The notes beneath the pieces were generated by a model that worked only from the letters and a program-made list of their open reading frames with translations, made no database searches and had not been told where the DNA came from. The position numbers were made by a program, and so were the translations under genes. A DNA stretch of 56,823 bases from Gemmatimonadota bacterium (lineage in GTDB: Bacteria > Gemmatimonadota > Gemmatimonadetes > Gemmatimonadales > GWC2-71-9), in the NCBI GenBank assembly GCA_024641745.1, contig JAHECL010000003.1, positions 1 to 56,823 of the forward strand, read 5' to 3'. Each line of letters starts with the position of its first letter. Position 1 is the first letter of the stretch. Below are positions 30,645 to 42,043 of the stretch, piece by piece.

Positions 30645-31829
30645 CTACCCCGCCATCCGGATCAGTTCCCGCTGCGGCTCGGCCGGGGTCACTTCGGGCC
30701 CGTCGGGGCCCCAGTACATGTTGATCTCGCTTCGGACCCCGATCTTGCCAGATATATAGATACCGGGCTCCACCGAGAATCCGACCCCCGGCATCAGTTC
30801 GCGGTCATCATGTGTCTCATAATCGTCCAGGTGCGGCCCGGAGCCATGGAGATCCCGATCGATGGAATGGCCGGTCCGGTGGACAAAGTACTCCCCGTAC
30901 CCCGCCCGCTCGATGACCCCGCGGGCCGCCCGGTCCCCCTCGAACCCCGCCACCAGGCGACCCTCCGCTGCCCCCTGCTGCACCGCCTGGATCGCGGCAT
31001 CCCGGGCATCCCGGACGGTCCGCCAGACCGTTTCCACCTCCGCGGGCACCGTCGTCCCCGAAAAACCCATCCAGGTCTGGTCGGCGAATACGGTGGTGGT
31101 GCTCCCCTTCCCTCCCCACAGATCCAGCAGGATCACCTGGTCCTTCGCCAGGGTCGCGTCCTTCCCCGCTTCAGGCTCGTAATGGGGGTTCGCGGCGTTG
31201 GCGCCGAACCCGACGATCGGGAGCGTGGTCAGCTTGAGCCCCCGCCCTTCCATCGCCGACACGACCCGCGCCTGCAGCGCCGTCTCGGTCAATCCCCTGC
31301 CGCCCTGGGTGACCGCCCAGGCCAGCTCGCTCCGGGCGATGTCGGCCAGCGCCTCGGCGGCATACCGGTGATCGGCCAGCTCGGCCGGGCTCCACCGCGA
31401 GGCGAACCGCGTCACCAGTGAGGAGGAGGGGACCACCGTGCCGCCGAGGCGGGTGATGAGCTGGACGACGCCGGCGGGCACCCGGTCGAGGTAGGGAACA
31501 GCGTCGTCCGGAGAGATCTCCATCGCCAGGGTCCGGCCCTTCACGATCGAGGTCAGGGCGGCGTGCAGTTCCTCCCACCGGGCGTACGGAATCAGCCGCC
31601 CGGGAAACCCCTCCAGCGGCTGCATCTCGATCTTGTGGACCACTGCCACCGGCTCCCCCTCCCTCGGGAGGAGGACGAAGAGCCGACGGCTCCCCATGCC
31701 GCCCAGGCCCAGGACGCGGCCGGCCACGGGGTTCAGGCCGTGGAAGTCGAACAGGAGCCAGGCATCGGCGCCGACGGCGTCGAGACCCTCGGCGAGCTGC
31801 TGGCGGTCGGGCAAGGGCGTGGAGCTCAT
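30645..31829 (-). CDS. M24-family (Xaa-Pro) metallopeptidase
   Basis: ANPHY, ILLDLWG, ADQTW, HRTGHSI..LHG, FSVEPGIY, GVRSE. ATGA overlap with the upstream gene. Confidence 0.9.
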   Translation of the reverse strand: MSSTPLPDRQQLAEGLDAVGADAWLLFDFHGLNPVAGRVLGLGGMGSRRLFVLLPREGEPVAVVHKIEMQPLEGFPGRLIPYARWEELHAALTSIVKGRTLAMEISPDDAVPYLDRVPAGVVQLITRLGGTVVPSSSLVTRFASRWSPAELADHRYAAEALADIARSELAWAVTQGGRGLTETALQARVVSAMEGRGLKLTTLPIVGFGANAANPHYEPEAGKDATLAKDQVILLDLWGGKGSTTTVFADQTWMGFSGTTVPAEVETVWRTVRDARDAAIQAVQQGAAEGRLVAGFEGDRAARGVIERAGYGEYFVHRTGHSIDRDLHGSGPHLDDYETHDDRELMPGVGFSVEPGIYISGKIGVRSEINMYWGPDGPEVTPAEPQRELIRMAG

Positions 31830-32464
31830 TGGTACGCCTCCGCGGCGGCGGCCTGCCACCGGCATGTGTCGTCTCCCCGGGCCCGGCAGCGCTGGTGCAC
31901 CATGGCGCCTTCGAATCCGGTGAGGGCACGCAGCAGCTCGGCGAGCGCTGCGCCATAGAAGGAGCACGCCTGGCCGTCGGCCATGGCGCGCAGCGAAAGG
32001 GGTTCCGGTATCACCGCCTCGGCGGACCGGCCCCGGATGGCCAGCGACGCCGCGAAGACCCGACGCGCCGCGCGGGACGCCGCCCCCGCCCCGATCCGCC
32101 GCCGGAGGAACCGCGGGGAGACCCGCATCACCATCCGGACCGGGAGGGCGGTGCTGCGGGCAGCGTACCGGGCCGCCCGCCGTCCCGCATCGGCGAACAC
32201 CAGCGCGGCATCCGGCCGGCGCCCCACGAGGCGGAAGACGGCGACCGTCTCCTCGGCCGGGATCGGCAGGCCGCGGCGGGCGGCCTCCTGATAGCGCTGG
32301 ATCTGGGCCGCCACCGTGGCACTCAGGCCCAGGCGCTTGGCGACGATCTCGCCCGCCACCTCGTCCAGTCCGTCCCCGACCGGGGTGTCGAGGTTCCGGA
32401 GCGCCTCGAGCAGGCTCAACGGGACCGTGGCCGGGGTGCCGACGGCGGCGGTCAGCTTCGGCAC
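31826..32464 (-). CDS. V4R (4-vinyl reductase)-domain protein
   Basis: C-terminal ACSFY.A.L.EL...L.......[20 protein letters not shown] helix typical of HNOB/V4R folds. Confidence 0.7.
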
Positions 32465-32571
32465 GGGAAACGGCGGGGAGTCCTCGACATGGTCGGGCAG
32501 AAGTTACCCACGGACTGCGCGCTCTACCAGAGGCGCTTGCGCCCTTCCCCCCGAACGGGGACATTCCACCG

Positions 32572-33138
32572 ATGCCCACCGCCGGTCCCGACCTGACCAC
32601 CTTCGAGCGCGACGTCCTCCCCCACCTCGACCTGATGTACCGGGTGGCGCTCCGGATGACCGGCGAGCCGGCGAGCGCGGAGGACCTGGTCCAGGACACC
32701 GTCCTGAAGGCGTTCCGCGCCTGGGACAGCTTTCGCCAGGGAACCAATGCGCGCGGCTGGCTGTTGACCATTCTCAGGAACACCTTCATCAACGACTACC
32801 GCCGCCGCCGCCGGGCGCCGGCGCTGGTGGACATCGATGTGGCCGAGCCGCGGGCCATCATCCACGAGCAGGCGGGACAGGATCCCGAGGGTGAGTTCTT
32901 CCATGCGCTGGTGGACGACCGGATCCTGGCGGCCATCGACGCCCTTCCCGACGAGTTCCGCGAGGCGGTGGTCCTGAGCGACATCGAAGGGATGAGCTAC
33001 GCCCAGATAGCCGAGACGCTCGAGGTCCCGGTGGGCACCGTGAAGTCCCGGCTGTCCCGGGGCCGACGGCAACTGCAGGGAGCGCTGATGGACTACGCGA
33101 TCGAGGCAGGCATCATCCGCCCGGGGACGGCATCGTGA
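32572..33138 (+). CDS. ECF sigma factor (SigR/SigH-like)
   Basis: [32 protein letters not shown]. Region 4 [20 protein letters not shown]. Confidence 0.93.
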
Positions 33139-33383
33139 GCCAGGACCGGATGGACTGCCAGGAGGCCCTGGAGCTCCTCCAGGATTTCCTGAAGGAGGAG
33201 TTGACCGCCGCCAACCAGGCGCGCGTCGCGAGTCACCTGGCCGCGTGCCGGCACTGCCTGACCCACGAGCAGTTCGAGCGCAACTTCCTCGCGGCCCTCG
33301 AGCGGGCGGCCCGCGGCGCGTGCTGCCCCGACGCGGTCGCGGCCCGCATCCGGCAGGCCCTCCGGAGCGACCTGCCGGGCTGA
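33135..33383 (+). CDS. Zinc-binding anti-sigma factor (zf-HC2/ZAS), soluble RsrA-like
   Basis: MDC..AL..L..FL..EL and HLAACRHC (HxxxCxxC), extra CC, no TM segment. GTGA overlap with the sigma gene. Confidence 0.88.
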
Positions 33384-33385
33384 GC

Positions 33386-34153
33386 GTGCCTCCCCTCCAG
33401 GCCGCGGCATTCGCCGTCGCGATCTCGGCGCTGGCCTGGCGGACCGGCGCGTTGCGTCCCGGCGGTGCGGCCGCGGCCGCCGTGATCGGGGCCTGCGTCC
33501 TCACCGTCGCCGGCTGGCCCGGCGGGCTCGTCCTGCTGGCGTTCTTCCTGCCCGCCTCCGCCAGTTCGCGCCTCTGGCCCGGCCCTCCCTCGCCGCTCGA
33601 CCCCAAGGACGATCAACGCGATATCTGGCAGGTGCTGGCCAATGGCGCGGCCCCCGCACTGGCCCTTGTGGCCGGCGGTCCGGGCGCCCTGCTGGGGTTT
33701 GCGGCCGGACTGGCGGCGGCGGCGGCCGACACCTGGGCCACATCCATCGGGGCCCACAGCCGCACGGCGCCGCGGCACATTCTGACCGGGGCGACGGTAT
33801 CACGCGGATCGAGTGGCGGCGTCACGCCGCTGGGCACCCTCGGGGCCGCGGCCGGTGCACTGCTCGTGGCGCTGGCAGCGCAGCCGCTGGTGGGGTGGCG
33901 GGGCACCGCCACGGCCCTCGGCATCGGCCTCGCCGGCATGCTGCTCGATTCCGCGCTGGGCGCCGCAGTTCAGGGTAGGTTCCACTGTGACCGGTGCGAC
34001 CGGGCCAGTGAATGGCGGCGGCACCGATGCGGCGGGACGACACGGCCTCTCGGAGGGTATGCATGGCTGAACAACGACGGCGTCAATGCGCTCGCCACCG
34101 CAGCGGCCACGGCGGCCGGCTGGGCGGCATGGGCGTGGTGCTGCTCGCCATGA
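33386..34153 (+). CDS. DUF92 (TMEM19/VTE6-like) membrane protein
   Basis: K..QRDIWQVLANG, AADTWATSIG, G.SGGVT.LG, LDS.LGA.VQ, CxxC..HxCG, LNNDGVN. Confidence 0.88.
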   Translation: MPPLQAAAFAVAISALAWRTGALRPGGAAAAAVIGACVLTVAGWPGGLVLLAFFLPASASSRLWPGPPSPLDPKDDQRDIWQVLANGAAPALALVAGGPGALLGFAAGLAAAAADTWATSIGAHSRTAPRHILTGATVSRGSSGGVTPLGTLGAAAGALLVALAAQPLVGWRGTATALGIGLAGMLLDSALGAAVQGRFHCDRCDRASEWRRHRCGGTTRPLGGYAWLNNDGVNALATAAATAAGWAAWAWCCSP

Positions 34154-34557
34154 CCCTCCTCGGCGGCTGCGAAGCCGGGACGGCGACGGGGCCGGGCCGT
34201 CCCGGCCTTCCCGACGGCGGCTCGACCGGGACGACCGGCGGGGGGAACACGCCGGTGGTCGCCGGCACGTGGAGCACCCGCCTGGTCACGCCGGTGCCCC
34301 TCGACGATTTCCTCCAGGAGGACATCACCTGGGAATTCCGGACCGACGGCAGCTGCCGGCAGTCGATCGAAAGCGTCCTGTATTCCGAGGGCATCCCGCG
34401 GCTGACCGTCACCACCTGCAGCTACACCCTGCGCCAGGGCGTCGTCCTGGTGCGCTTCGCCGGGGCGGCGGAGCCGGTCGGCTATCCCTTTTCCATCCCC
34501 CTGAACGATTCCGACACCCTGGTGCTCTCCGGCATCGCATACGGGCGGGTCCCCTGA
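34129..34557 (+). CDS. Small lipoprotein of unknown function (lipocalin-like)
   Basis: Lipobox LGGC, G/T-rich linker, VAGTWS, WEFRTDGSC, one Cys pair. Start uncertain. Confidence 0.6.
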   Translation: MGVVLLAMTLLGGCEAGTATGPGRPGLPDGGSTGTTGGGNTPVVAGTWSTRLVTPVPLDDFLQEDITWEFRTDGSCRQSIESVLYSEGIPRLTVTTCSYTLRQGVVLVRFAGAAEPVGYPFSIPLNDSDTLVLSGIAYGRVP

Positions 34558-35771
34558 GCACCACCGACGCGGATGTCGTGATCGCCGGCGCGGGACCGGC
34601 CGGCAGCGCCGCGGCGGCCCTGCTCGCCGGCGCAGGCTGGCGGGTGGTGGTCGTGGACCGCGCCACCTTTCCGAGGGACAAGGCCTGCTCCGAATACATG
34701 AGCCCTGAAGCGGTGCGGCTCCTGGATCGTCTCGGCGTCGTGCCGGACCTGGAGGCGGCGGGCGCCGTGGCGCTGGAGGGCACCACCGTGGTGGGCGCAC
34801 GGGGAAGCCGGCTCACCGGCCTCTTCCAGGAAGCGAGCCCGGCGCCGTTCCGCCCGGCGGGATTGTCCCTGCCACGACGCATCCTCGACGCGCGGCTGGT
34901 GGAGGCGGCGCGTGATGCCGGGGCCGAGGTGCGGGAGGCGACCAAGGTGGAGGCCCTGCTGCACGACCAGGGCGCCATCGCCGGCGTGATGGTCCGGGGA
35001 CCCGATGGCCGCCACGCGCCGATCCGGGCGCGCCTCACGATCGGTGCGGACGGCATCGGCTCGATCGTGGCGCGGCGGCTGGGACGGCGGCGGCGTGCGC
35101 TGCCGAGACGCGTGGCATTCGTGGCCCACCTCCGGGGCGTCTCCGGGATGGGCCGCACGGCGGAGATGCATGTGGGCACCGACGGATACGTCGGGCTCAA
35201 CCGGATCGGCACCGACCTCTACAACGTGGCGCTCGTGGTGCCGCAGGCGCAGGCGGCCGGCGCGCGGGGAGATCCCGGCGGCTTTTTCTTCCGTCGACTC
35301 GAGACCTTCCCTGGCGTGCAGGGCCGCATCCAGCGCTCACACCTGGCACGTGAGGTGCTCGTGACCGGGCCGTTCGCGTCGCGCGCCAGTCGCGTCACCA
35401 GCGCCGGCGCCCTGCTGATCGGCGACGCCGCCGATTTCTTCGACCCGTTCACCGGACAGGGGATCTATTCGGCGCTGCGGGGTGCGGAACTGGCCACGGA
35501 AGTCGCCGCCGGCGCCCTGGAGGATCCCGGCATCCCCTCCGCGTCGGCCCTCGCACACTACCGGGTGCTCCGGCGCCGCGCGTTTGCGGGCAAGTGGGCC
35601 GTCGAGCGGCTCATCGCCTACGGCATGTGGATGCCCTCGCTGTTCGATCGCGCCGTGTCCCGCCTCGGTGCGCGGCCGACGATGGCCCATGCCCTCATCG
35701 GCGTCACCGGCGACTTCGTCCCGGCGCGCCGGGTCCTCAATCCCCGCTTCCTGACCCGGATGATGCTATGA
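34554..35771 (+). CDS. NAD(P)/FAD-dependent oxidoreductase (geranylgeranyl-reductase-like)
   Basis: DVVIAGAGPAG, FPRDKAC.E, IGADG, LIGDAA.FFDPFTGQGIY.A. Probable CTG start overlapping the upstream stop. Confidence 0.85.
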   Translation: MSTTDADVVIAGAGPAGSAAAALLAGAGWRVVVVDRATFPRDKACSEYMSPEAVRLLDRLGVVPDLEAAGAVALEGTTVVGARGSRLTGLFQEASPAPFRPAGLSLPRRILDARLVEAARDAGAEVREATKVEALLHDQGAIAGVMVRGPDGRHAPIRARLTIGADGIGSIVARRLGRRRRALPRRVAFVAHLRGVSGMGRTAEMHVGTDGYVGLNRIGTDLYNVALVVPQAQAAGARGDPGGFFFRRLETFPGVQGRIQRSHLAREVLVTGPFASRASRVTSAGALLIGDAADFFDPFTGQGIYSALRGAELATEVAAGALEDPGIPSASALAHYRVLRRRAFAGKWAVERLIAYGMWMPSLFDRAVSRLGARPTMAHALIGVTGDFVPARRVLNPRFLTRMML

Positions 35772-36256
35772 GCCGCCCCGAGATTGACCCCGCCGATTTC
35801 CGGCAGCTGCTCGGGCGGTTCGCCACCGGCGTGACGGTCATGACCCTGCACCTCCCCGACGGCCAGCCCGCGGGGATGACGGCGAGCAGCCTCGCGTCGG
35901 TCTCGCTGGAGCCGCCGCTGCTCTCGACCTGCATCGACCACGACGCCGAGCTGTATCAGGCGCTCGGCGCGGCACCCGGGTATGCCATCAACATCCTCGA
36001 GGCCTCCCAGGAGGCGATCTCCCGGCGCTTCGCCTCGAAGCACCTCGACCGGTTCGAGGGCATCGGCTACCACACCAGTCCGGGCGGACATCCGATCCTG
36101 GACGGCGTGCTCGCCTGGATCGACTGTGCCCCGTTCGCCACCTATCCCGGGGGCGACCATGCGATCCTCGTGGGGCGGGTGTTGCGCGGCGGGACCACCG
36201 ACGGCGCACCGCTGGTGTACTTCCGCGGCGGCTACACCGGACTGACGCACGGATGA
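35768..36256 (+). CDS. Flavin reductase family protein
   Basis: FRQLLGRFATGVTV, GMTASS..SVSLEPPL, GGDH.I.VG, PLVYFRG.Y. Confidence 0.92.
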   Translation: MSRPEIDPADFRQLLGRFATGVTVMTLHLPDGQPAGMTASSLASVSLEPPLLSTCIDHDAELYQALGAAPGYAINILEASQEAISRRFASKHLDRFEGIGYHTSPGGHPILDGVLAWIDCAPFATYPGGDHAILVGRVLRGGTTDGAPLVYFRGGYTGLTHG

Positions 36257-36945
36257 CCGCGCCCGCGCTGGCGCCGCTTGGCACCGAACTGCTGGACGAT
36301 CCCGCGGCCGACCCGGCCACAGTGTCCCGCTCCCTGCACCACATCGCGCGCGCCAACCACTGGTTCGGTGGCCGCGCGGCCGCGCTCTGGGGCGTGCACC
36401 AGCTGGTGCGGGACCTTCCCACTACCGGCGTCCTCACCCTGTTCGACCTGGGGACCGGCGCGGCCGACCTCCCGCTGGCCGCCATCGATCACTTCGCGCA
36501 ACGGGGCCGTACCCTGCGCGCGCTCGCGCTTGAACGCAGCCCGGTCGCCGCCGCCATCGCCTCGGAACGCGGCGTCCCGACCGTGATCGCCTGTGCCGGG
36601 CAGATGCCGGTACGGACCGCCTCGGTGGACATCGTCCTGGTCAGCCAGGTGGCCCACCACCTGGCCCCCGACGCGGTCGTCGATCTCTTCCGGGCGGCGA
36701 GCGCGCTGGCGCGCGTCGGCGTGGTGGTCGCCGACCTCCGGCGGTCGGAAGTGGCGGTGGCGGCGTTCCGGATCGGGAGCACCCTGCTCGGGTTCGATTC
36801 GGTCACCCGCACCGACGGGGTCACCTCGGTCCGGCGAGGATACCGCGCGGACGAGCTGCGGAGACTCGCGGTGCGCGCCGGACAGACGCCGCGGGTCCGT
36901 CGGCGGCCGGGCTTCCGGCTCGTCGCCGTCTGGAAGACCGCCTGA
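36253..36945 (+). CDS. Class I SAM-dependent methyltransferase
   Basis: ELLDDP..SL.HIARAN.WFGG, DLGTGAAD, HHL, DLRR, DG.TSVRRGY. This subfamily is commonly found next to type III PKS genes. Confidence 0.85.
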   Translation: MTAPALAPLGTELLDDPAADPATVSRSLHHIARANHWFGGRAAALWGVHQLVRDLPTTGVLTLFDLGTGAADLPLAAIDHFAQRGRTLRALALERSPVAAAIASERGVPTVIACAGQMPVRTASVDIVLVSQVAHHLAPDAVVDLFRAASALARVGVVVADLRRSEVAVAAFRIGSTLLGFDSVTRTDGVTSVRRGYRADELRRLAVRAGQTPRVRRRPGFRLVAVWKTA

Positions 36946-37409
36946 TGCGCACCGTGGATCGCCTCGCCGTGCGGGCGCCGGCCGACCGGATGTTCGAGGC
37001 GGCGGCGGATGTGGAGCGATGGCCGGAACGGCTTCCGCACTACCGCTGGGTGCGGTTCAACGCCCGGCGGACGGGCGGCGGCGTCGTCGAGATGGCGGCC
37101 GTCCGCCCCTTCGGTCCCCTCCGCTGGCCGGTCTGGTGGGAGTCGGAGATGTGGGTGGATGAGGCACGGCGGGAGGTCCGGTACCGCCATGTGCGCGGCA
37201 TCACCGCCGGCATGGACGTGCTCTGGACCGTCGAGGCGCGCGGACCGAGGGAGACCAGCGTGACCATCGTCCATACCTGGGACGGACCGGAGTGGCCGTG
37301 GATCCGGGTGCCCGCGGCCGAGTGGATCATCGGACCCGTGTTCGTGCACGGCATCGCCTCGCGCACCCTGGCCGGACTGGCCCGCTCGGTGGAGGTGCCG
37401 CATGCCTGA
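36945..37409 (+). CDS. SRPBCC / polyketide cyclase-dehydrase family protein
   Basis: APADRMFE.AADVERWPE.LPHY, WWES, H..GIT.GM.V.W. The aromatase/cyclase-like layout is 154 aa. Confidence 0.85.
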   Translation: MRTVDRLAVRAPADRMFEAAADVERWPERLPHYRWVRFNARRTGGGVVEMAAVRPFGPLRWPVWWESEMWVDEARREVRYRHVRGITAGMDVLWTVEARGPRETSVTIVHTWDGPEWPWIRVPAAEWIIGPVFVHGIASRTLAGLARSVEVPHA

Positions 37410-38646
37410 TCCCCGTCGCGTGGTCATCACCGGCATCGGCGCCATCACGCCGATCGGCATCGGGGTCGAGGCACTCTGGGCTGGACTCCAGCGTGCCGAA
37501 TCCGCCGTGCGAGGCATCACCCGGTTCGATCCGGCGGCGTTTCGAACCCGCATCGCGGCGGAAGTCTCCGGCTTCCATCCCACCGATTTCATCGAGGAGC
37601 GAAAGGCGCGCCGGATCGACCGGTTCGGGCAGTTCAGCGTGGCGGCGGCCCGCCTGGCGCTGCTCGATGCGGGGCTCGACCTTGGCAAGGAAGACCGCGA
37701 CCGCACCGGCGTGATGATGGGCACCGCGCTGGGCGGAATCGGGATGGCGGAAGGGCAGCACGCACGGTATGTCGAGGAGGGGATCCGGGCGGTCGATCCC
37801 GCCCTCGCCCTGATGGTGTTCGCCGGCGCGGCGAGCTGCAATGTGGCCATCGAATTCGGCGTGTCAGGCCCCAACAGCACCAACGGGATGAGCTGCGCCT
37901 CGGGCACCATCGCCATCGGGGACGGCTTCCGGGCCATCGCCCGTGGCGACGCCGAGGTGATGCTCGCGGGGGGCGCCGAGGCGCCGCTGGCGCCGCTCAG
38001 CTTCGGCGCCTTCGCCATCATCCGCGCCATGTCCACCCGCAACGACGACCCGGCCACGGCCAGCCGCCCCTTCGACGCCGAGCGCGACGGGTTCGTGATG
38101 GGAGAGGGAGCCGCGGTGCTGGTGCTGGAGGAGCGCAGCCGGGCCCTGGCGCGGGGCGCACGGATCTATGCGGAGCTCTGCGGCTACGGGCTCACGAACG
38201 ATGCACACCACATGATCGCCCCGCGGCCCGATGGCGGGCAGGCGGCGCGGGCCATGCGCCTGGCGCTCGCCGAGGCAGGTATCCAGCCGGGGGCGATCGG
38301 CTACATCAACGCCCACGGCTCCTCCACCCCCCTCAACGACTCGACAGAGACCGCGGCCATCCGCCAGGTGTTCGGGACGCACGCCGACCGCCTCGCCGTC
38401 AGCGGGACCAAGGGGTACTACGGCCACGCACTCGGCGCGAGCGGCGCGATCGAGGCGGCCATCTGCGCCCTCGCCAGCCACCGGCGGTGGCTGCCCCCGA
38501 CCATCAACCTCCAGGTGCCTGACCCCGCCTGCGACCTCGACTATCTTGCCGACGGCGGCCGGGCCGCCAACCCCCGGTACCTGCTCAGCAATTCGTTCGG
38601 GTTCGGCGGCATCAACGCGGCGCTGGTGCTGCAGCGCGCCGACTGA
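37402..38646 (+). CDS. FabF-like beta-ketoacyl synthase
   Basis: RRVVITGIG. Cys-His-His triad in MSCASG, NAHGSST and KGYYGHALGASG. SRPFD..RDGFVMGEG, SNSFGFGG. Confidence 0.9.
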   Translation: MPDPRRVVITGIGAITPIGIGVEALWAGLQRAESAVRGITRFDPAAFRTRIAAEVSGFHPTDFIEERKARRIDRFGQFSVAAARLALLDAGLDLGKEDRDRTGVMMGTALGGIGMAEGQHARYVEEGIRAVDPALALMVFAGAASCNVAIEFGVSGPNSTNGMSCASGTIAIGDGFRAIARGDAEVMLAGGAEAPLAPLSFGAFAIIRAMSTRNDDPATASRPFDAERDGFVMGEGAAVLVLEERSRALARGARIYAELCGYGLTNDAHHMIAPRPDGGQAARAMRLALAEAGIQPGAIGYINAHGSSTPLNDSTETAAIRQVFGTHADRLAVSGTKGYYGHALGASGAIEAAICALASHRRWLPPTINLQVPDPACDLDYLADGGRAANPRYLLSNSFGFGGINAALVLQRAD

Positions 38647-39461: not shown

Positions 39462-39611
39462 CTAGGCTTCCCCGTGTCCCCGCTTCCCCACCTGCCGCAG
39501 CGCAGCGGACGCTCGCGTCCAGAGGCTCAGCGTGTACCCGAGATAGATCACGGCGGCCACGACGTACGCGGCCACCAGGAACCCGCCGTTCTGGGGAGTC
39601 TCAAAGGGCAT
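39462..39611 (-). CDS. ccmD: CcmD-like small membrane protein (49 aa, absent from the ORF track)
   Basis: MPFETPQNGGFLVAAYVVAAVIYLGYTLSLWTRASAALRQVGKRGHGEA. Single TM with AY motif and basic tail. GGAG RBS, overlaps the ccmC end. Confidence 0.7.
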   Translation of the reverse strand: MPFETPQNGGFLVAAYVVAAVIYLGYTLSLWTRASAALRQVGKRGHGEA

Positions 39612-40302
39612 CGCCGGCTCCTTCCCGCAGGTTGTCCAGCCGCGCCAGCCCGTAGCGCAGCACCACGAATCCGATGTAGAGCAGCGTGAAGGCCGCCATC
39701 CCCGAGAGGAGCGCCCGGAGCATCTCGGGCGGCATCGACGGCGCGCTCGGCTTCAGGAGGACCGGCTGGGGATGGAGGGTCCGGAAGAGGTAGACGCTGA
39801 GGTGGATGAACGGCACCAGCACGAGGCCCATGATGCCCACCACGGCGCTGAAGCGGGCGCGTTCGCCATGGTCCTGCACCGCCGCGCGAAGCGCGAGGTA
39901 GCCCACGAACAGGAAGAAGAGAAAGAGCGTCAGGGTGAGGCGGGCGTCCCAGGTCCACCAGGTGCCCCACACCGTCTTGCCCCAGATCGGTCCCGTGGTC
40001 AGCATCACCAGCGAGAAGGCGATGCCGACTTCGGCGGAGCTGGCGGCGAAGAGGTCGAGCCGCTCGTCCTTGAGCCAGAGGTAGAGGATGCTGACCAGCC
40101 CGACCACGGCGAACGCGACCAGCGCCCCCCACGCGGCGGGGGCGTGAATGTAGAAGATCTTCTGGGCCGGCCCCTGGCGGACCTCGACGGGGGTGTACAG
40201 CAGCGCGAGGGCGTACACGCCCGCGGCCGCCAGCAGGCCGAGCAGGGTGAGCACCTGCCCGCGGCGGACGATGCGGCGGGCGGCGAGCAGTTCTGGTGTC
40301 AT
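39601..40302 (-). CDS. ccmC: Heme exporter / cytochrome c biogenesis protein CcmC
   Basis: IFYIH.P.AW, WWD motif WGKTVWGTWWTWDARLT, IH.SV..FRTLHP. Confidence 0.93.
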   Translation of the reverse strand: MTPELLAARRIVRRGQVLTLLGLLAAAGVYALALLYTPVEVRQGPAQKIFYIHAPAAWGALVAFAVVGLVSILYLWLKDERLDLFAASSAEVGIAFSLVMLTTGPIWGKTVWGTWWTWDARLTLTLFLFFLFVGYLALRAAVQDHGERARFSAVVGIMGLVLVPFIHLSVYLFRTLHPQPVLLKPSAPSMPPEMLRALLSGMAAFTLLYIGFVVLRYGLARLDNLREGAGDAL

Positions 40303-40979
40303 TCGTCGACGACCGCCGGGAAGATGAGGATGCACAGCGTCACGAAACCGATGTCGTACAGGGTCAGTAACCTAAGCCAGCCCATCATCTCGCTCAACGG
40401 GCGGCCCGCCAGCAGCTTGGCGGTCACCTGCACCGCGCCGACCAGGGGCGGCACCATGAACGGCAGGAGCAGCACCGGCAGCATCAGCTCGGCGAACCGG
40501 GTGCGCACCACCATGGCGCTGAAGATCGTGCCGACCGCGACGAAGCCGAGCGTCGCCAGGGCGGTGACGCCCAGGATGCCGCCGAGCGCGTGGCCGATAC
40601 CGACGTTGAAGAACAGGACGAAGAGGGGCAGCGCCACCGCCTCCACCACGCCCACGAAGGCGAGGTTGGCGAGGAGCTTGCCCACGTAGAGCGCGCTGCG
40701 CGGCACCGGCGCGAGGAGGATCCCGTCGAGCGCCGCGTTCTCCCGCTCGACGTAGAAGGCGCGGTTCAGCGCGATCACCGCGCCGAAGGCGAAGGTGACC
40801 CAGAGGACGCTCGGCGCGAGATCCACCGCCGCGATCGCCGTGGGGTCGCGGGCGAAGTTGAACACCACCAGCACCAGGGCGGAGAAGACGATCGCGGAGA
40901 GGAGCGCGGTCCGGCTGCGCAGCTCGAGCCGGATGTCCTTGGCGGCGATCACCCAGGCGATGCGCAGGAACTCAGCCAT
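40299..40979 (-). CDS. ccmB: Heme exporter protein CcmB
   Basis: KDIRLELRS, F..E.EN.ALDG..LAP, LPVLLLP. Lies between ccmA and ccmC. Confidence 0.9.
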   Translation of the reverse strand: MAEFLRIAWVIAAKDIRLELRSRTALLSAIVFSALVLVVFNFARDPTAIAAVDLAPSVLWVTFAFGAVIALNRAFYVERENAALDGILLAPVPRSALYVGKLLANLAFVGVVEAVALPLFVLFFNVGIGHALGGILGVTALATLGFVAVGTIFSAMVVRTRFAELMLPVLLLPFMVPPLVGAVQVTAKLLAGRPLSEMMGWLRLLTLYDIGFVTLCILIFPAVVDE

Positions 40980-41691
40980 GGACCAGCTCGGCGTAGCGGC
41001 CGTGGAAGGCGGCCAGGTCGTCGGGCCGCCGGCCCTCGAGCGCCCAGTGGCCGCCGGCGAGCACCGCCACATGCGTGGCGAGCTCCCACGCCTCGGCCAG
41101 GTGGTGGCTCACCAGGACCAGCGCCCGGCCCCGGTCCAGCTGGGACGAGAGCAGCGCGCGAAACCGGTCCGCCGCCGGGGCATCGAGGCCGGTGAAGGGC
41201 TCGTCGAGCAGGAGGATATCGGGCTGGTGCAGCAGGGCGCGCGCGATGGCGGCACGCTGCAGCAGGCCGCGGCTGAGGTGCCGGACGGGGGTGTCCGCGC
41301 GTGCGCTCAGCCCGACCTCCTCGAGCGCCGCCCGGGTCGCCGCCTCCGGATCCGGCAGGTGGTAGAGCCGGGCGGTGAAGCGCAGGTTCTCGCTCGGCGT
41401 GAGGTCGTCGTACAGGAAGGTATGGTGCGACAGCAGGCCGATCGCCCGGCGGGGCGCCGGATCATGGCGGGTCAGCTGCTCGCCGCGGATTCGCACCTGG
41501 CCCCGGCTGGGCCGCATCAGGCCCGCCAGGATCCGGAGGAGCGTCGTCTTGCCGGCGCCGTTCGGTCCGGCGACCGCCAGCATCTCGCCGGCACGGACGT
41601 CGAGATCGATACCACGGAGGACCTGGAGCGCGCCGAACGCGCGGACCAGCCCGCGCGCCGACAGGAGGGGTGTCTCAGCCGGCTCGGTCAA
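40972..41691 (-). CDS. ccmA: Heme ABC exporter ATP-binding protein CcmA (start TTG 41691 or 41718)
   Basis: GPNGAGKTT, LY.DLT..ENL.F, LSRGLLQR, LLLDEPFTGLD. Confidence 0.9.
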   Translation of the reverse strand: MTEPAETPLLSARGLVRAFGALQVLRGIDLDVRAGEMLAVAGPNGAGKTTLLRILAGLMRPSRGQVRIRGEQLTRHDPAPRRAIGLLSHHTFLYDDLTPSENLRFTARLYHLPDPEAATRAALEEVGLSARADTPVRHLSRGLLQRAAIARALLHQPDILLLDEPFTGLDAPAADRFRALLSSQLDRGRALVLVSHHLAEAWELATHVAVLAGGHWALEGRRPDDLAAFHGRYAELVHG

Positions 41692-42043
41692 TGGCGGCGC
41701 CGAGCTCGTCGAGGTCAAACGGCTTGATCAGGTAGGCATCGTGCGCCAGGTCGAGCACCCGAAGCTGCGGCTCGACGCTGACGTAGGCGGTGGTGATGAT
41801 GACCGGGAGGTCGGGCGACACGTCGCGGATGCGGCGGAGCAGGTCCACACCGTCCGTGTCGGGCAGGCGCATGTCCAGCACCACGACATCGGGCGGCGCC
41901 TCCGCCAGCCGCGTGAGCGCCTCCGCGCCCGAGGACGCGAACGTCATCGTATAGCGCGGGCGGAAGTACCGCTCGTAGCTGATGCGGAGGGCGGGCTCGT
42001 CTTCGATGAAGAGCACCCGCCGGTTGGCTGCCTGTTCGGTCAT
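41675..42043 (-). CDS. Single-domain response regulator (receiver only)
   Basis: VLFIEDE, DVVVLDMRLPDTDG, IITTAY, YLIKPF. Confidence 0.92.
   Translation of the reverse strand: MTEQAANRRVLFIEDEPALRISYERYFRPRYTMTFASSGAEALTRLAEAPPDVVVLDMRLPDTDGVDLLRRIRDVSPDLPVIITTAYVSVEPQLRVLDLAHDAYLIKPFDLDELGAAIDRAG

Follow-up and report, generated by a model that had tools for sequence, protein, structure and literature searches.

The DNA analysed here is a 56.8-kb stretch (56,823 nucleotides, from now on referred to as the window) of contig C196, which belongs to a metagenome-assembled genome (MAG) of 2.67 Mb that is 94% complete with a G+C content of ~70%. Homologues of the SRPBCC protein encoded in the window are labelled Gemmatimonadales, and the source bacterium is a member of the Gemmatimonadales of soil or sediment. 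At positions 32572–38646 the + strand carries nine co-directional open reading frames (ORFs), joined by overlaps or tiny gaps, in the order sigma factor, anti-sigma factor, DUF92 protein, small lipoprotein-like ORF, flavin adenine dinucleotide (FAD) flavoprotein, flavin reductase, methyltransferase (MT), SRPBCC protein and ketosynthase (KS). The last five of these genes, from now on referred to as the cassette, are the main subject of this study. An earlier note on this DNA, made from the letters alone, had placed nine ORFs of these families at these coordinates, and strand, positions and family identities were all borne out; its title, however, gave the end of the operon as KS, cyclase, MT, FAD oxidoreductase and flavin reductase, while the actual order is FAD, flavin reductase, MT, SRPBCC and KS.

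The first gene of the cassette (34554..35771, +) encodes a flavoprotein of the GGR/HidB-like group matching PF01494 and is followed by a gene for a 162 aa NAD(P)H:flavin reductase of the HpaC/FerA-like type (35768..36256, +; PF01613 at 129.9 bits) and one for a 230 aa class I S-adenosylmethionine-dependent MT of the PRK06202 (NF004851) type (36253..36945, +; NF004851 at 123.6 bits). Next come the SRPBCC protein, 154 aa, of the Bet v1/START fold and aromatase/cyclase-like (36945..37409, +; PF03364 at 25 bits), and the cassette KS, a FabF-type paralogue of 414 aa (37402..38646, +; TIGR03150 at 525.6 bits). Neighbouring genes in this part share 4 bp at FAD/flavin reductase and again at flavin reductase/MT, 1 bp at MT/SRPBCC and 8 bp at SRPBCC/KS. 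Upstream lie an extracytoplasmic function (ECF) sigma factor of the SigH/SigR-like type (188 aa; 32572..33138, +; Pfam Sigma70_r2 and r4_2), a soluble zinc-binding anti-sigma factor (ZAS, RsrA-like, 82 aa; 33135..33383, +; Pfam zf-HC2 at 1.1e-7), a DUF92 integral membrane protein (33386..34153, +; PF01940 at 164.9 bits) and the lipoprotein-like ORF with its lipobox-like motif LLGGC (34129..34557, +), for which no Pfam or NCBIfam family scored above threshold. The sigma and anti-sigma genes overlap by 4 bp, and a gap of 2 bp separates the latter from DUF92, given that DUF92 starts at GTG 33386, which is most likely since the in-frame codon at 33380 is CTG. DUF92 overlaps the lipoprotein-like ORF by 25 bp, the start of the latter being uncertain between the in-frame candidates 34063, 34129 and 34150, and the overlap of 4 bp between this ORF and the FAD gene holds only if translation starts at CTG 34554. 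The proposal that every junction from the sigma factor to the KS overlaps or spans at most 2 bp could thus be confirmed, except that the FAD junction becomes +20 bp if the start is GTG 34578.

Since eight of the nine ORFs have orthologues in syntenic order in related genomes, they are real genes rather than open frames of a GC-rich sequence; the exception is the lipoprotein-like ORF, which has syntenic orthologues at 4 of the 20 related loci described below. When searched with the E. coli proteins, the 56.8-kb window contained no homologue of FabD, FabG, FabH, AcpP or PlsX at E≤1e-3, in agreement with the earlier observation that no acyl carrier protein (ACP), fabG or fabD gene is located nearby.

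Of 401 Gemmatimonadota genomes sampled, 259 carry the SRPBCC gene, nearly always as a single copy; this tally counts the unpublished genome G157 as one positive, and G157 enters no other result given here. It is present in 154/166 genomes of family f1, 73/93 of f2, 5/30 of f6 and 8/70 of f7, and in 0/23 of families f9 to f12. For 20 of these genomes, selected to cover different genera and families, ~19 kb of DNA surrounding the gene were then searched with the window proteins, and at each of these 20 related loci the KS lies directly 3' of the SRPBCC gene. The order FAD, flavin reductase, MT, SRPBCC, KS recurs at 18 of the 20, the two exceptions being locus L048 with SRPBCC-KS only and locus L051 with MT-FAD-SRPBCC-KS; the flavin reductase is accordingly present at 18/20 loci and missing from the MT-FAD-SRPBCC-KS arrangement. 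Identities to the window proteins range between 61–86% for the KS, 58–82% for SRPBCC, 33–67% for the MT and 31–81% for the FAD protein. The sigma/anti-sigma pair is located directly 5' of the cassette at 5/20 loci and DUF92 upstream of it at 11/20. The nine genes had been taken for one unit, of which the five-gene core stood, and it co-occurs widely (18/20 related genomes), while sigma/anti-sigma, DUF92 and the lipoprotein-like ORF proved to be lineage-variable additions.

Among the best 80 matches of a scan of genome contigs, all records are labelled Gemmatimonadota with the exception of one 'Bacillota' MAG, and a record labelled Gemmatimonas sp. carries the cassette. In a scan of metagenomes, 65 of 80 loci are of the near type. 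Of these near-type loci, 54 have 500 bp or more of sequence on the downstream side, and 53 of the 54 carry a KS, the one without it being the 1.2-kb contig L224. Upstream DNA was long enough at 22 near-type loci; FAD, flavin reductase and MT are all present at 13 of these, while the MT is missing from seven and the flavin reductase from two, so that these two enzymes are dispensable tailoring parts. Even at the distant-type loci, where the SRPBCC protein is 36–46% identical to that of the window, a KS is found in 6 of 14 cases. The conserved unit is SRPBCC-KS with the FAD protein, usually together with MT and flavin reductase. A UbiA prenyltransferase gene beside SRPBCC-KS in locus L258 was considered as a link to prenylated aromatics and rejected, as it encodes heme O synthase, scoring 378.9 bits where the cut-off is 246.

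The cassette KS exceeds the 493.75-bit cut-off of TIGR03150, the FabF equivalog model, with 525.6 bits (525.2 bits when the whole genome was searched), and among solved structures its best relatives are FabF proteins with 415 bits, compared to 303 bits for the actinorhodin KS. It is not the only FabF of the genome: a separate plsX-fabH-fabD-fabG-acpP-fabF locus is present on contig C128, as the earlier note had asked to be confirmed, and the acpP gene of this locus is the sole PP-binding match in the genome. Three proteins in total match the fabF profile, the housekeeping FabF, the cassette KS and, weakly, a thiolase, and no gene resembling a chain-length factor (CLF) was found among the two KS genes and the thiolase of this 94% complete genome. 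Neither was a second KS found beside the cassette KS in any of the 20 related loci, nor the type III polyketide synthase (PKS) domain PF02797 in the source genome. Because the genome is 94% complete, absences from it are to be read as not found rather than as proven.

The two KS proteins of the source genome are 45% identical. A housekeeping FabF occurs in 61 of 61 genomes at class level and is 58–78% identical to the source copy, while cassette KS proteins are 40–46% identical to that copy. In a tree rooted on FabB (IQ-TREE quick search), built on 21 cassette KS, 30 housekeeping FabF plus the two E. coli proteins FabF and FabB, with the rows taken from the fetched loci, the cassette KS form one clade with a Shimodaira-Hasegawa-like approximate likelihood ratio (SH-aLRT) support of 100 and a stem length of 1.69, and the housekeeping FabF form another (SH-aLRT 89). 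As predicted, the cassette KS thus falls outside the housekeeping FabF clade, in a sample confined to cassette KS, housekeeping FabF and the two E. coli references. A third type of FabF-like paralogue, 39–43% identical to both housekeeping and cassette KS, was observed in genomes of family f9 and in genome G113 (loci L297–L303); the second KS of the f9 genomes was examined as a candidate member of the cassette and rejected, as it belongs to this third type and has no SRPBCC neighbour.

When analysing the residues of the KS, the catalytic and gate positions were all found to be in place in the window protein (Cys165, His305, His342, Lys337 and Phe401), and the same five residues are intact in 26/26 cassette KS, five of which come from distant loci. 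The segment ALMVFAGAASCNVA, to which attention had been drawn as a non-FabF pocket segment in a protein that keeps Cys-His-His, is real and forms part of a pocket signature that extends over the whole clade. Counted from Met1 of E. coli FabF, the fixed differences from housekeeping FabF are G108A, I109L, F133 to Ala/Ser/Gly, F134L, V135A, P136L, T160N, A163S, A194P and L342A, and beside the catalytic Cys the cassette KS reads SCASG where housekeeping FabF reads ACxS. Several of these positions presumably surround the acyl pocket where the dimer partners meet, and smaller side chains there would make the pocket larger. Basic residues are also retained at positions 66, 69, 70 and 207; these we take to be the residues that dock the ACP, which fits an ACP-dependent enzyme. 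The cassette KS resembles housekeeping FabF in its score above the curated cut-off, in its Cys/His/His/Lys, gate Phe and C-terminal GFGG motif, but differs in being located outside the fab operon, in its 45% identity, in forming a separate clade and in its fixed substitutions around the acyl pocket and next to the catalytic Cys.

Many bacteria carry FabF paralogues, and with 525.6 bits against TIGR03150, above the cut-off, the KS could in principle be a spare FabF, or one used under particular conditions, that serves housekeeping fatty-acid synthesis and has unrelated genes as neighbours. We give this only the slimmest of chances, given the long separate branch of the KS with pocket changes fixed in 26/26 proteins, its 8-bp overlap with the SRPBCC gene and the adjacency of the two at 20/20 loci, and the fact that the KS has been lost along with FAD, MT and SRPBCC in the genomes described below.

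For the SRPBCC protein a profile of 12 sequences matches the aromatase/cyclases BexL, WhiE-ORFVI and TcmN at 4e-7 to 7e-6, while ZhuI is matched at 0.018 and the COQ10-like structure 1t17 at 0.054. An AlphaFold model with a predicted local distance difference test (pLDDT) score of 89.8 has ZhuI, TcmN and WhiE-ORFVI as its top Foldseek matches, with template modelling (TM) scores of 0.72–0.79, and other Bet v1-fold proteins rank close behind. Among solved structures, both sequence and fold thus place the protein nearest to the aromatase/cyclases of type II PKS, to which it had been likened. Between the two groups the Trp and Tyr of a WPxL..Y block align, and the invariant polar residues His32, Tyr33, Arg34, Arg54, His82 and His110 are peculiar to the family of the window. 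When the profile was run against 1.84 billion representative proteins, 773 matched at E≤1e-3 and 74 at E≤1e-30, so that the family appears small and specific. Two fusions were seen among 150 representatives, MT-SRPBCC (P0125, 403 aa) and FAD_binding_3-SRPBCC (P0246, 520 aa), the former of which could be a frameshift artefact of overlapping genes. Named distant members are found in Paenibacillus sp. NEAU-GSW1, a Herpetosiphonaceae MAG and a Chloroflexota MAG. Three further distant members without a KS (43% identical; L251, L283 and L296) are located near ParA/ParB-type genes and are possibly situated on mobile DNA; in L283 the SRPBCC gene adjoins a PEMT/ICMT-family methyltransferase.

A discrete Cys-His-His KS beside an SRPBCC protein that is nearest to TcmN, WhiE-ORFVI, ZhuI and BexL recalls the type II aromatic PKS, from which the cassette differs in having neither a CLF nor a dedicated ACP and in its FabF-like KS. 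In passages of a 2025 review of type II PKS, elongation is described only for KS/CLF heterodimers, and the aromatic systems are described there as requiring such a heterodimer together with an ACP of their own.

The MT and the flavoprotein point to another group of enzymes. NF004851/PRK06202 is the only strong model for the MT (123.6 bits against a cut-off of 243), and while the sequence matched no solved structure at E<0.1, a structural model (pLDDT 92.7) has the aromatic-ring and quinone C-methyltransferases CouO, NovO and Coq5 as nearest folds. For the flavoprotein the best NCBIfam model is TIGR02032, the GGR family, with 133.5 bits and hence under the cut-off of 158.8, and the best solved relatives are the FADH2-dependent halogenases CmlS (1.6e-19), 8zop and ChlB4 and the archaeal GGR 3oz2. 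The flavoprotein has a conserved Cys at the position of the Cys in VRCGEG of 3oz2, while the GYIWVFP block of 3oz2 reads GYVGLNR in the window. The flavin reductase scores under all NCBIfam equivalog cut-offs; it is read as supplying reduced flavin to the adjacent flavoprotein.

According to passages of PMC8086630, the operon hidA>hidB>hidC of Cyanobium, which is linked to the hierridins, encodes a methyltransferase, a FAD oxidoreductase and a type III PKS. The resorcinol is methylated by HidA, with HidB as its proposed hydroxylase, in passages of that paper and of a 2019 review of alkylresorcinols (PMC6836626), the latter of which also describes monoalkylresorcinols as so far known only from type III PKS. 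Type III PKS genes were found in 33 of the 401 Gemmatimonadota genomes, and at 20 such loci of the phylum a homologue of the window MT is located beside the PKS in nine and a homologue of the FAD protein in six. Where both are present the order is MT-FAD-PKS, the same as that of hidA>hidB>hidC. Three PKS-linked MTs have NF004851 as best model as well (144–188 bits, under the cut-off of 243), and the motifs FPRxKxC, GYVGL and GDAAxxxxPFTGEGI are common to the PKS-linked and the cassette flavoproteins. That this MT subfamily and flavoprotein accompany type III PKS had been given as established in the earlier note and is confirmed both in the same phylum and in the hid literature.

Four relatives of the window locus (L051, L235, L305 and L306) have the order MT-FAD-SRPBCC-KS, by which the SRPBCC-KS pair occupies the slot of the type III PKS. 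Compared with hid/srs-type operons, as tested on the PKS loci of the same phylum, the cassette thus shares the NF004851/PRK06202 MT, a GGR/QhpG-like flavoprotein with common motifs and, in these four relatives, the order MT-FAD-X; it differs in having no type III PKS and, in its place, SRPBCC and a FabF-type KS that would need an ACP, and the window in addition has a flavin reductase and the order FAD, flavin reductase, MT. A direct module swap, with the MT and FAD proteins of the L051 type as orthologues of the PKS-linked ones, was considered and is not supported, the identities of 31–37% and 27–36% placing them at about equal distance to both groups.

With halogenases as the best solved relatives (CmlS at 1.6e-19, 8zop, ChlB4) and a dedicated flavin reductase adjoining the gene, the flavoprotein and the reductase could be taken for a two-component FADH2-dependent halogenase with a halogenated product, which would be a variant of the pathway proposed below and not a replacement for it. 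Hierridin C is chlorinated by an enzyme not yet known although the hid cluster has only HidB, according to passages of the 2019 review (PMC6836626), and this speaks for the same possibility. On the other side, GWVWMIPI of CmlS, the WxWxIP block of the halogenases, aligns with GYVGLNRI in the window protein, and GYVGL or close variants are found in 19/19 cassette orthologues. A Leu occupies the position of the CmlS lysine K71, which we take to be catalytic, and the GGR-type Cys is present instead. A halogenase is therefore highly improbable and, lacking WxWxIP and the lysine and with the GGR-type Cys conserved, the flavoprotein is read as a HidB-like hydroxylase or possibly a reductase.

The distribution of the two systems among the genomes is complementary. 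The SRPBCC gene is present in 4/33 PKS-positive genomes compared to 255/368 PKS-negative ones; in family f7 the cassette occurs in eight genomes, the PKS in 22 and both in none, and in family f1 the PKS is found in 3/12 cassette-negative but only 2/154 cassette-positive genomes. In genus g30 the two of six genomes without the cassette (G126 and G147) are the two with MT-FAD-type III PKS. Cassette and type III PKS are thus largely mutually exclusive in the sample of the phylum. At the syntenic locus of G147 (L307) and G126 (L308) the M24, V4R, DUF92 and flavin reductase genes are kept, followed by cytochrome c maturation genes, and exactly FAD, MT, SRPBCC and KS are missing, while the congener G190 has the full set. 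In G099 (L309), from another family, V4R, flavin reductase and aquaporin are kept and the same four genes are missing. The flavin reductase retained at these remnants, in two independent lineages, either serves another flavoenzyme or has a role of its own.

Together these observations suggest that the cassette is devoted to making a small phenolic or quinone-like lipid independently of type III PKS and does the same job as the MT-FAD-type III PKS operons of the hid/srs type, a reading to which we assign a probability of about 0.45. From the gene content we infer the following course, including its substrates, how many times the chain is extended, the type of ring, the sequence of tailoring steps, release and regulation. 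The cassette KS would act as a homodimer without a CLF, draw a fatty acyl starter and malonyl extenders from the single housekeeping ACP and extend the chain a few times without reduction. The SRPBCC protein would then fold and aromatise the poly-beta-keto end into a resorcinol-type ring, which the PRK06202-type MT would methylate; the HidB-like flavoprotein, with reduced flavin from the flavin reductase, would hydroxylate the ring to the hydroquinone or quinone, giving a methoxy-hydroquinone or quinone lipid. In this genus, the release of the ECF sigma factor by a thiol-sensitive anti-sigma factor would induce the operon. As to the earlier suggestion that a KS and a cyclase replace the type III PKS, gene order, complementary distribution and locus remnants lend new support to the replacement, whereas the homodimeric function and the borrowing of the ACP stay on the conditional side of the proposal.

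A broader proposal, which we put forward tentatively and rate at less than an even chance, is that the SRPBCC protein and the FabF-derived KS make up a new class of two-protein aromatic polyketide synthase. Its elongating KS, a homodimer without CLF, would borrow the ACP of fatty-acid synthesis and pass a short poly-beta-keto acyl chain on to a dedicated cyclase, the pair having arisen as a functional counterpart to type III PKS. The expected products, redox-active alkylresorcinol or alkyl-hydroquinone lipids, would then occur in most Gemmatimonadales and with a patchy distribution in other phyla, with a thiol-stress sigma switch in this genus. No description of a cassette of a FabF-type KS and SRPBCC was found in the literature covered, which did not extend to subscription-only papers. 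If true, a KS-plus-cyclase pair in the slot of the type III PKS would add a third route to rings of this kind. Standard rules for biosynthetic gene clusters would miss the cassette, as its KS passes the FabF model, and since the SRPBCC gene is found in 259/401 genomes of an abundant and poorly cultured soil phylum, the cassette may give rise to a major membrane or redox lipid that has gone unrecognised there.

Several observations weigh against a pathway of this kind. An elongating KS homodimer that makes a poly-beta-keto chain is without precedent in the passages of the 2025 type II PKS review, and the cassette encodes neither a thioesterase or any other enzyme of release nor an ACP of its own, while the pathway would call for chain release, for decarboxylation and for intermediates shielded from the housekeeping FabG. 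The KS lies above the FabF equivalog cut-off and is far nearer to solved FabF than to the actinorhodin KS. In the SRPBCC protein Met69 aligns with Arg69 of TcmN, a residue that we take to be catalytic, and 8 of the 14 distant SRPBCC relatives have no KS neighbour. The MT and FAD proteins are only 26–34% identical to their PKS-linked homologues, and the type III PKS locus of G099 has neither as a neighbour. Type III PKS and cassette occur together in four genomes (G001, G031, G155 and G167), and the complementary pattern is confounded by phylogeny, as the genomes are kin and about three independent lineages lie behind it.

Some of the same features would fit a cassette that alters ordinary membrane lipids without forming any aromatic ring. 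Pairs of a methyltransferase and a FAD reductase make 10-methyl fatty acids, and here the KS would elongate or prime a special acyl-ACP, the MT and the GGR-like flavoprotein, the latter acting on C=C bonds as a reductase supplied by the flavin reductase, would give a methyl-branched or otherwise altered chain, and the SRPBCC protein would be a lipid-binding or dehydratase helper. Such a role agrees with a KS that scores above the FabF cut-off and keeps all catalytic and gate residues of FabF, with the ACP of fatty-acid synthesis being the only one in the genome, with the GGR-type Cys of the flavoprotein and its best NCBIfam model, and with DUF92 and the lipoprotein-like ORF as membrane-associated neighbours; moreover, a release enzyme is unnecessary if the product stays on the ACP and passes on to phospholipid. 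It leaves aside, however, that the MT and FAD subfamilies, with shared motifs, occur beside type III PKS genes, that the SRPBCC protein is nearest to aromatase/cyclases and that gene-order equivalence and the pattern of loss tie SRPBCC-KS to the role of the type III PKS. Nor is the MT of the cyclopropane-fatty-acid-synthase type, no such model being among its matches, and altogether we regard a purely membrane-lipid function as unlikely.

A further possibility is the tailoring of an isoprenoid quinone such as menaquinone, with MenJ-like reduction of the side chain, methylation of the ring and COQ10-like binding of the quinone, and with the KS as a linked but separate FabF paralogue. MenJ and UbiH/Coq6-type models are among the NCBIfam matches of the flavoprotein, Coq5 is among the nearest folds of the MT and some sources name the SRPBCC homologues COQ10 or RatA; DUF92 is, as we take it, the family of the plant phytyl-phosphate kinase VTE6. 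This role is nevertheless improbable when seen against the adjacency of SRPBCC and KS, which is the most conserved feature of all (20/20 loci) and the minimal unit in distant loci, and against the joint loss of FAD, MT, SRPBCC and KS. In addition, the COQ10-like structure 1t17 is matched at E=0.054 compared to 4e-7 for aromatase/cyclases, and the MenJ model at 96 bits against a cut-off of 700.

Returning to the aromatic lipid pathway, its proposed regulation starts from the two genes at the head of the operon. The ECF sigma factor has TIGR02947 (SigH_actino) as its best NCBIfam match with 179 bits, under the cut-off of 251.55, and the anti-sigma factor has TIGR03988 (antisig_RsrA) with 36.7 bits, under that of 62.5; in the translation of the latter, Cys8 and His34-x3-Cys38-x2-Cys41 (HxxxCxxC) can be read. 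The pair resembles the SigR-RsrA/SigH-RshA switch of Actinobacteria in its SigH_actino-type sigma factor, its small soluble anti-sigma factor with Cys8 and HxxxCxxC and its 4-bp gene overlap, but differs in scoring under the curated cut-offs, in having no SigR-type promoter and in being present at only 5/20 cassette loci. The SigR-type promoter consensus, which we take to be GGAAT-N15-20-GTT, was not found upstream of the operon, with two matches elsewhere in the window compared to 2.9 expected by chance, and a scan for sigma-70 promoters and terminators gave nothing useful. The region 5' of the sigma gene (32455–32580) contains the partly conserved blocks GAAGTTACCCACGG ... AACCAGAGGCGCTTGCG ... 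GGGGACATTCC, as seen in the window and five related loci (L035, L036, L037, L045 and L041), and may be an ECF promoter or operator; the blocks do not fit GGAAT-N15-20-GTT. Since the operon sits behind an ECF sigma factor and an RsrA-like thiol-sensing anti-sigma factor, oxidative or thiol stress probably induces it in this genus, and through the sigma/anti-sigma pair a connection of lipid chemistry with thiol stress can be tested.

On the opposite strand and diverging from the operon, a small V4R/BchJ-like protein of 212 aa is encoded (31826..32464, −), with weak matches to PF02830 (19.4 bits) and TIGR02019 (24.6 bits). Its gene is the divergent neighbour of the cassette at 17/20 related loci and is retained where FAD, MT, SRPBCC and KS have been lost. 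V4R domains bind small hydrophobic or aromatic ligands, and the protein, a candidate member of the system, could sense or carry the product of the cassette. An aquaporin gene follows the KS after a gap of 53 bp and is found downstream at 13/20 loci, and an M24 peptidase gene is present at 16/20. For flanking genes of this kind synteny alone is weak evidence of functional linkage, as the whole region is part of the syntenic core genome.

Further downstream, genes resembling those of cytochrome c maturation (CcmC-like, CcmB-like and an ABC ATPase, according to their translations) are located at 39601–41718 (−), and Cytochrom_C_asm and ABC genes are likewise found 3' of the locus in G147 and G126. 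No RNA dataset is listed as containing the operon, while four DNA sequencing runs, all from one sediment study, do contain it.

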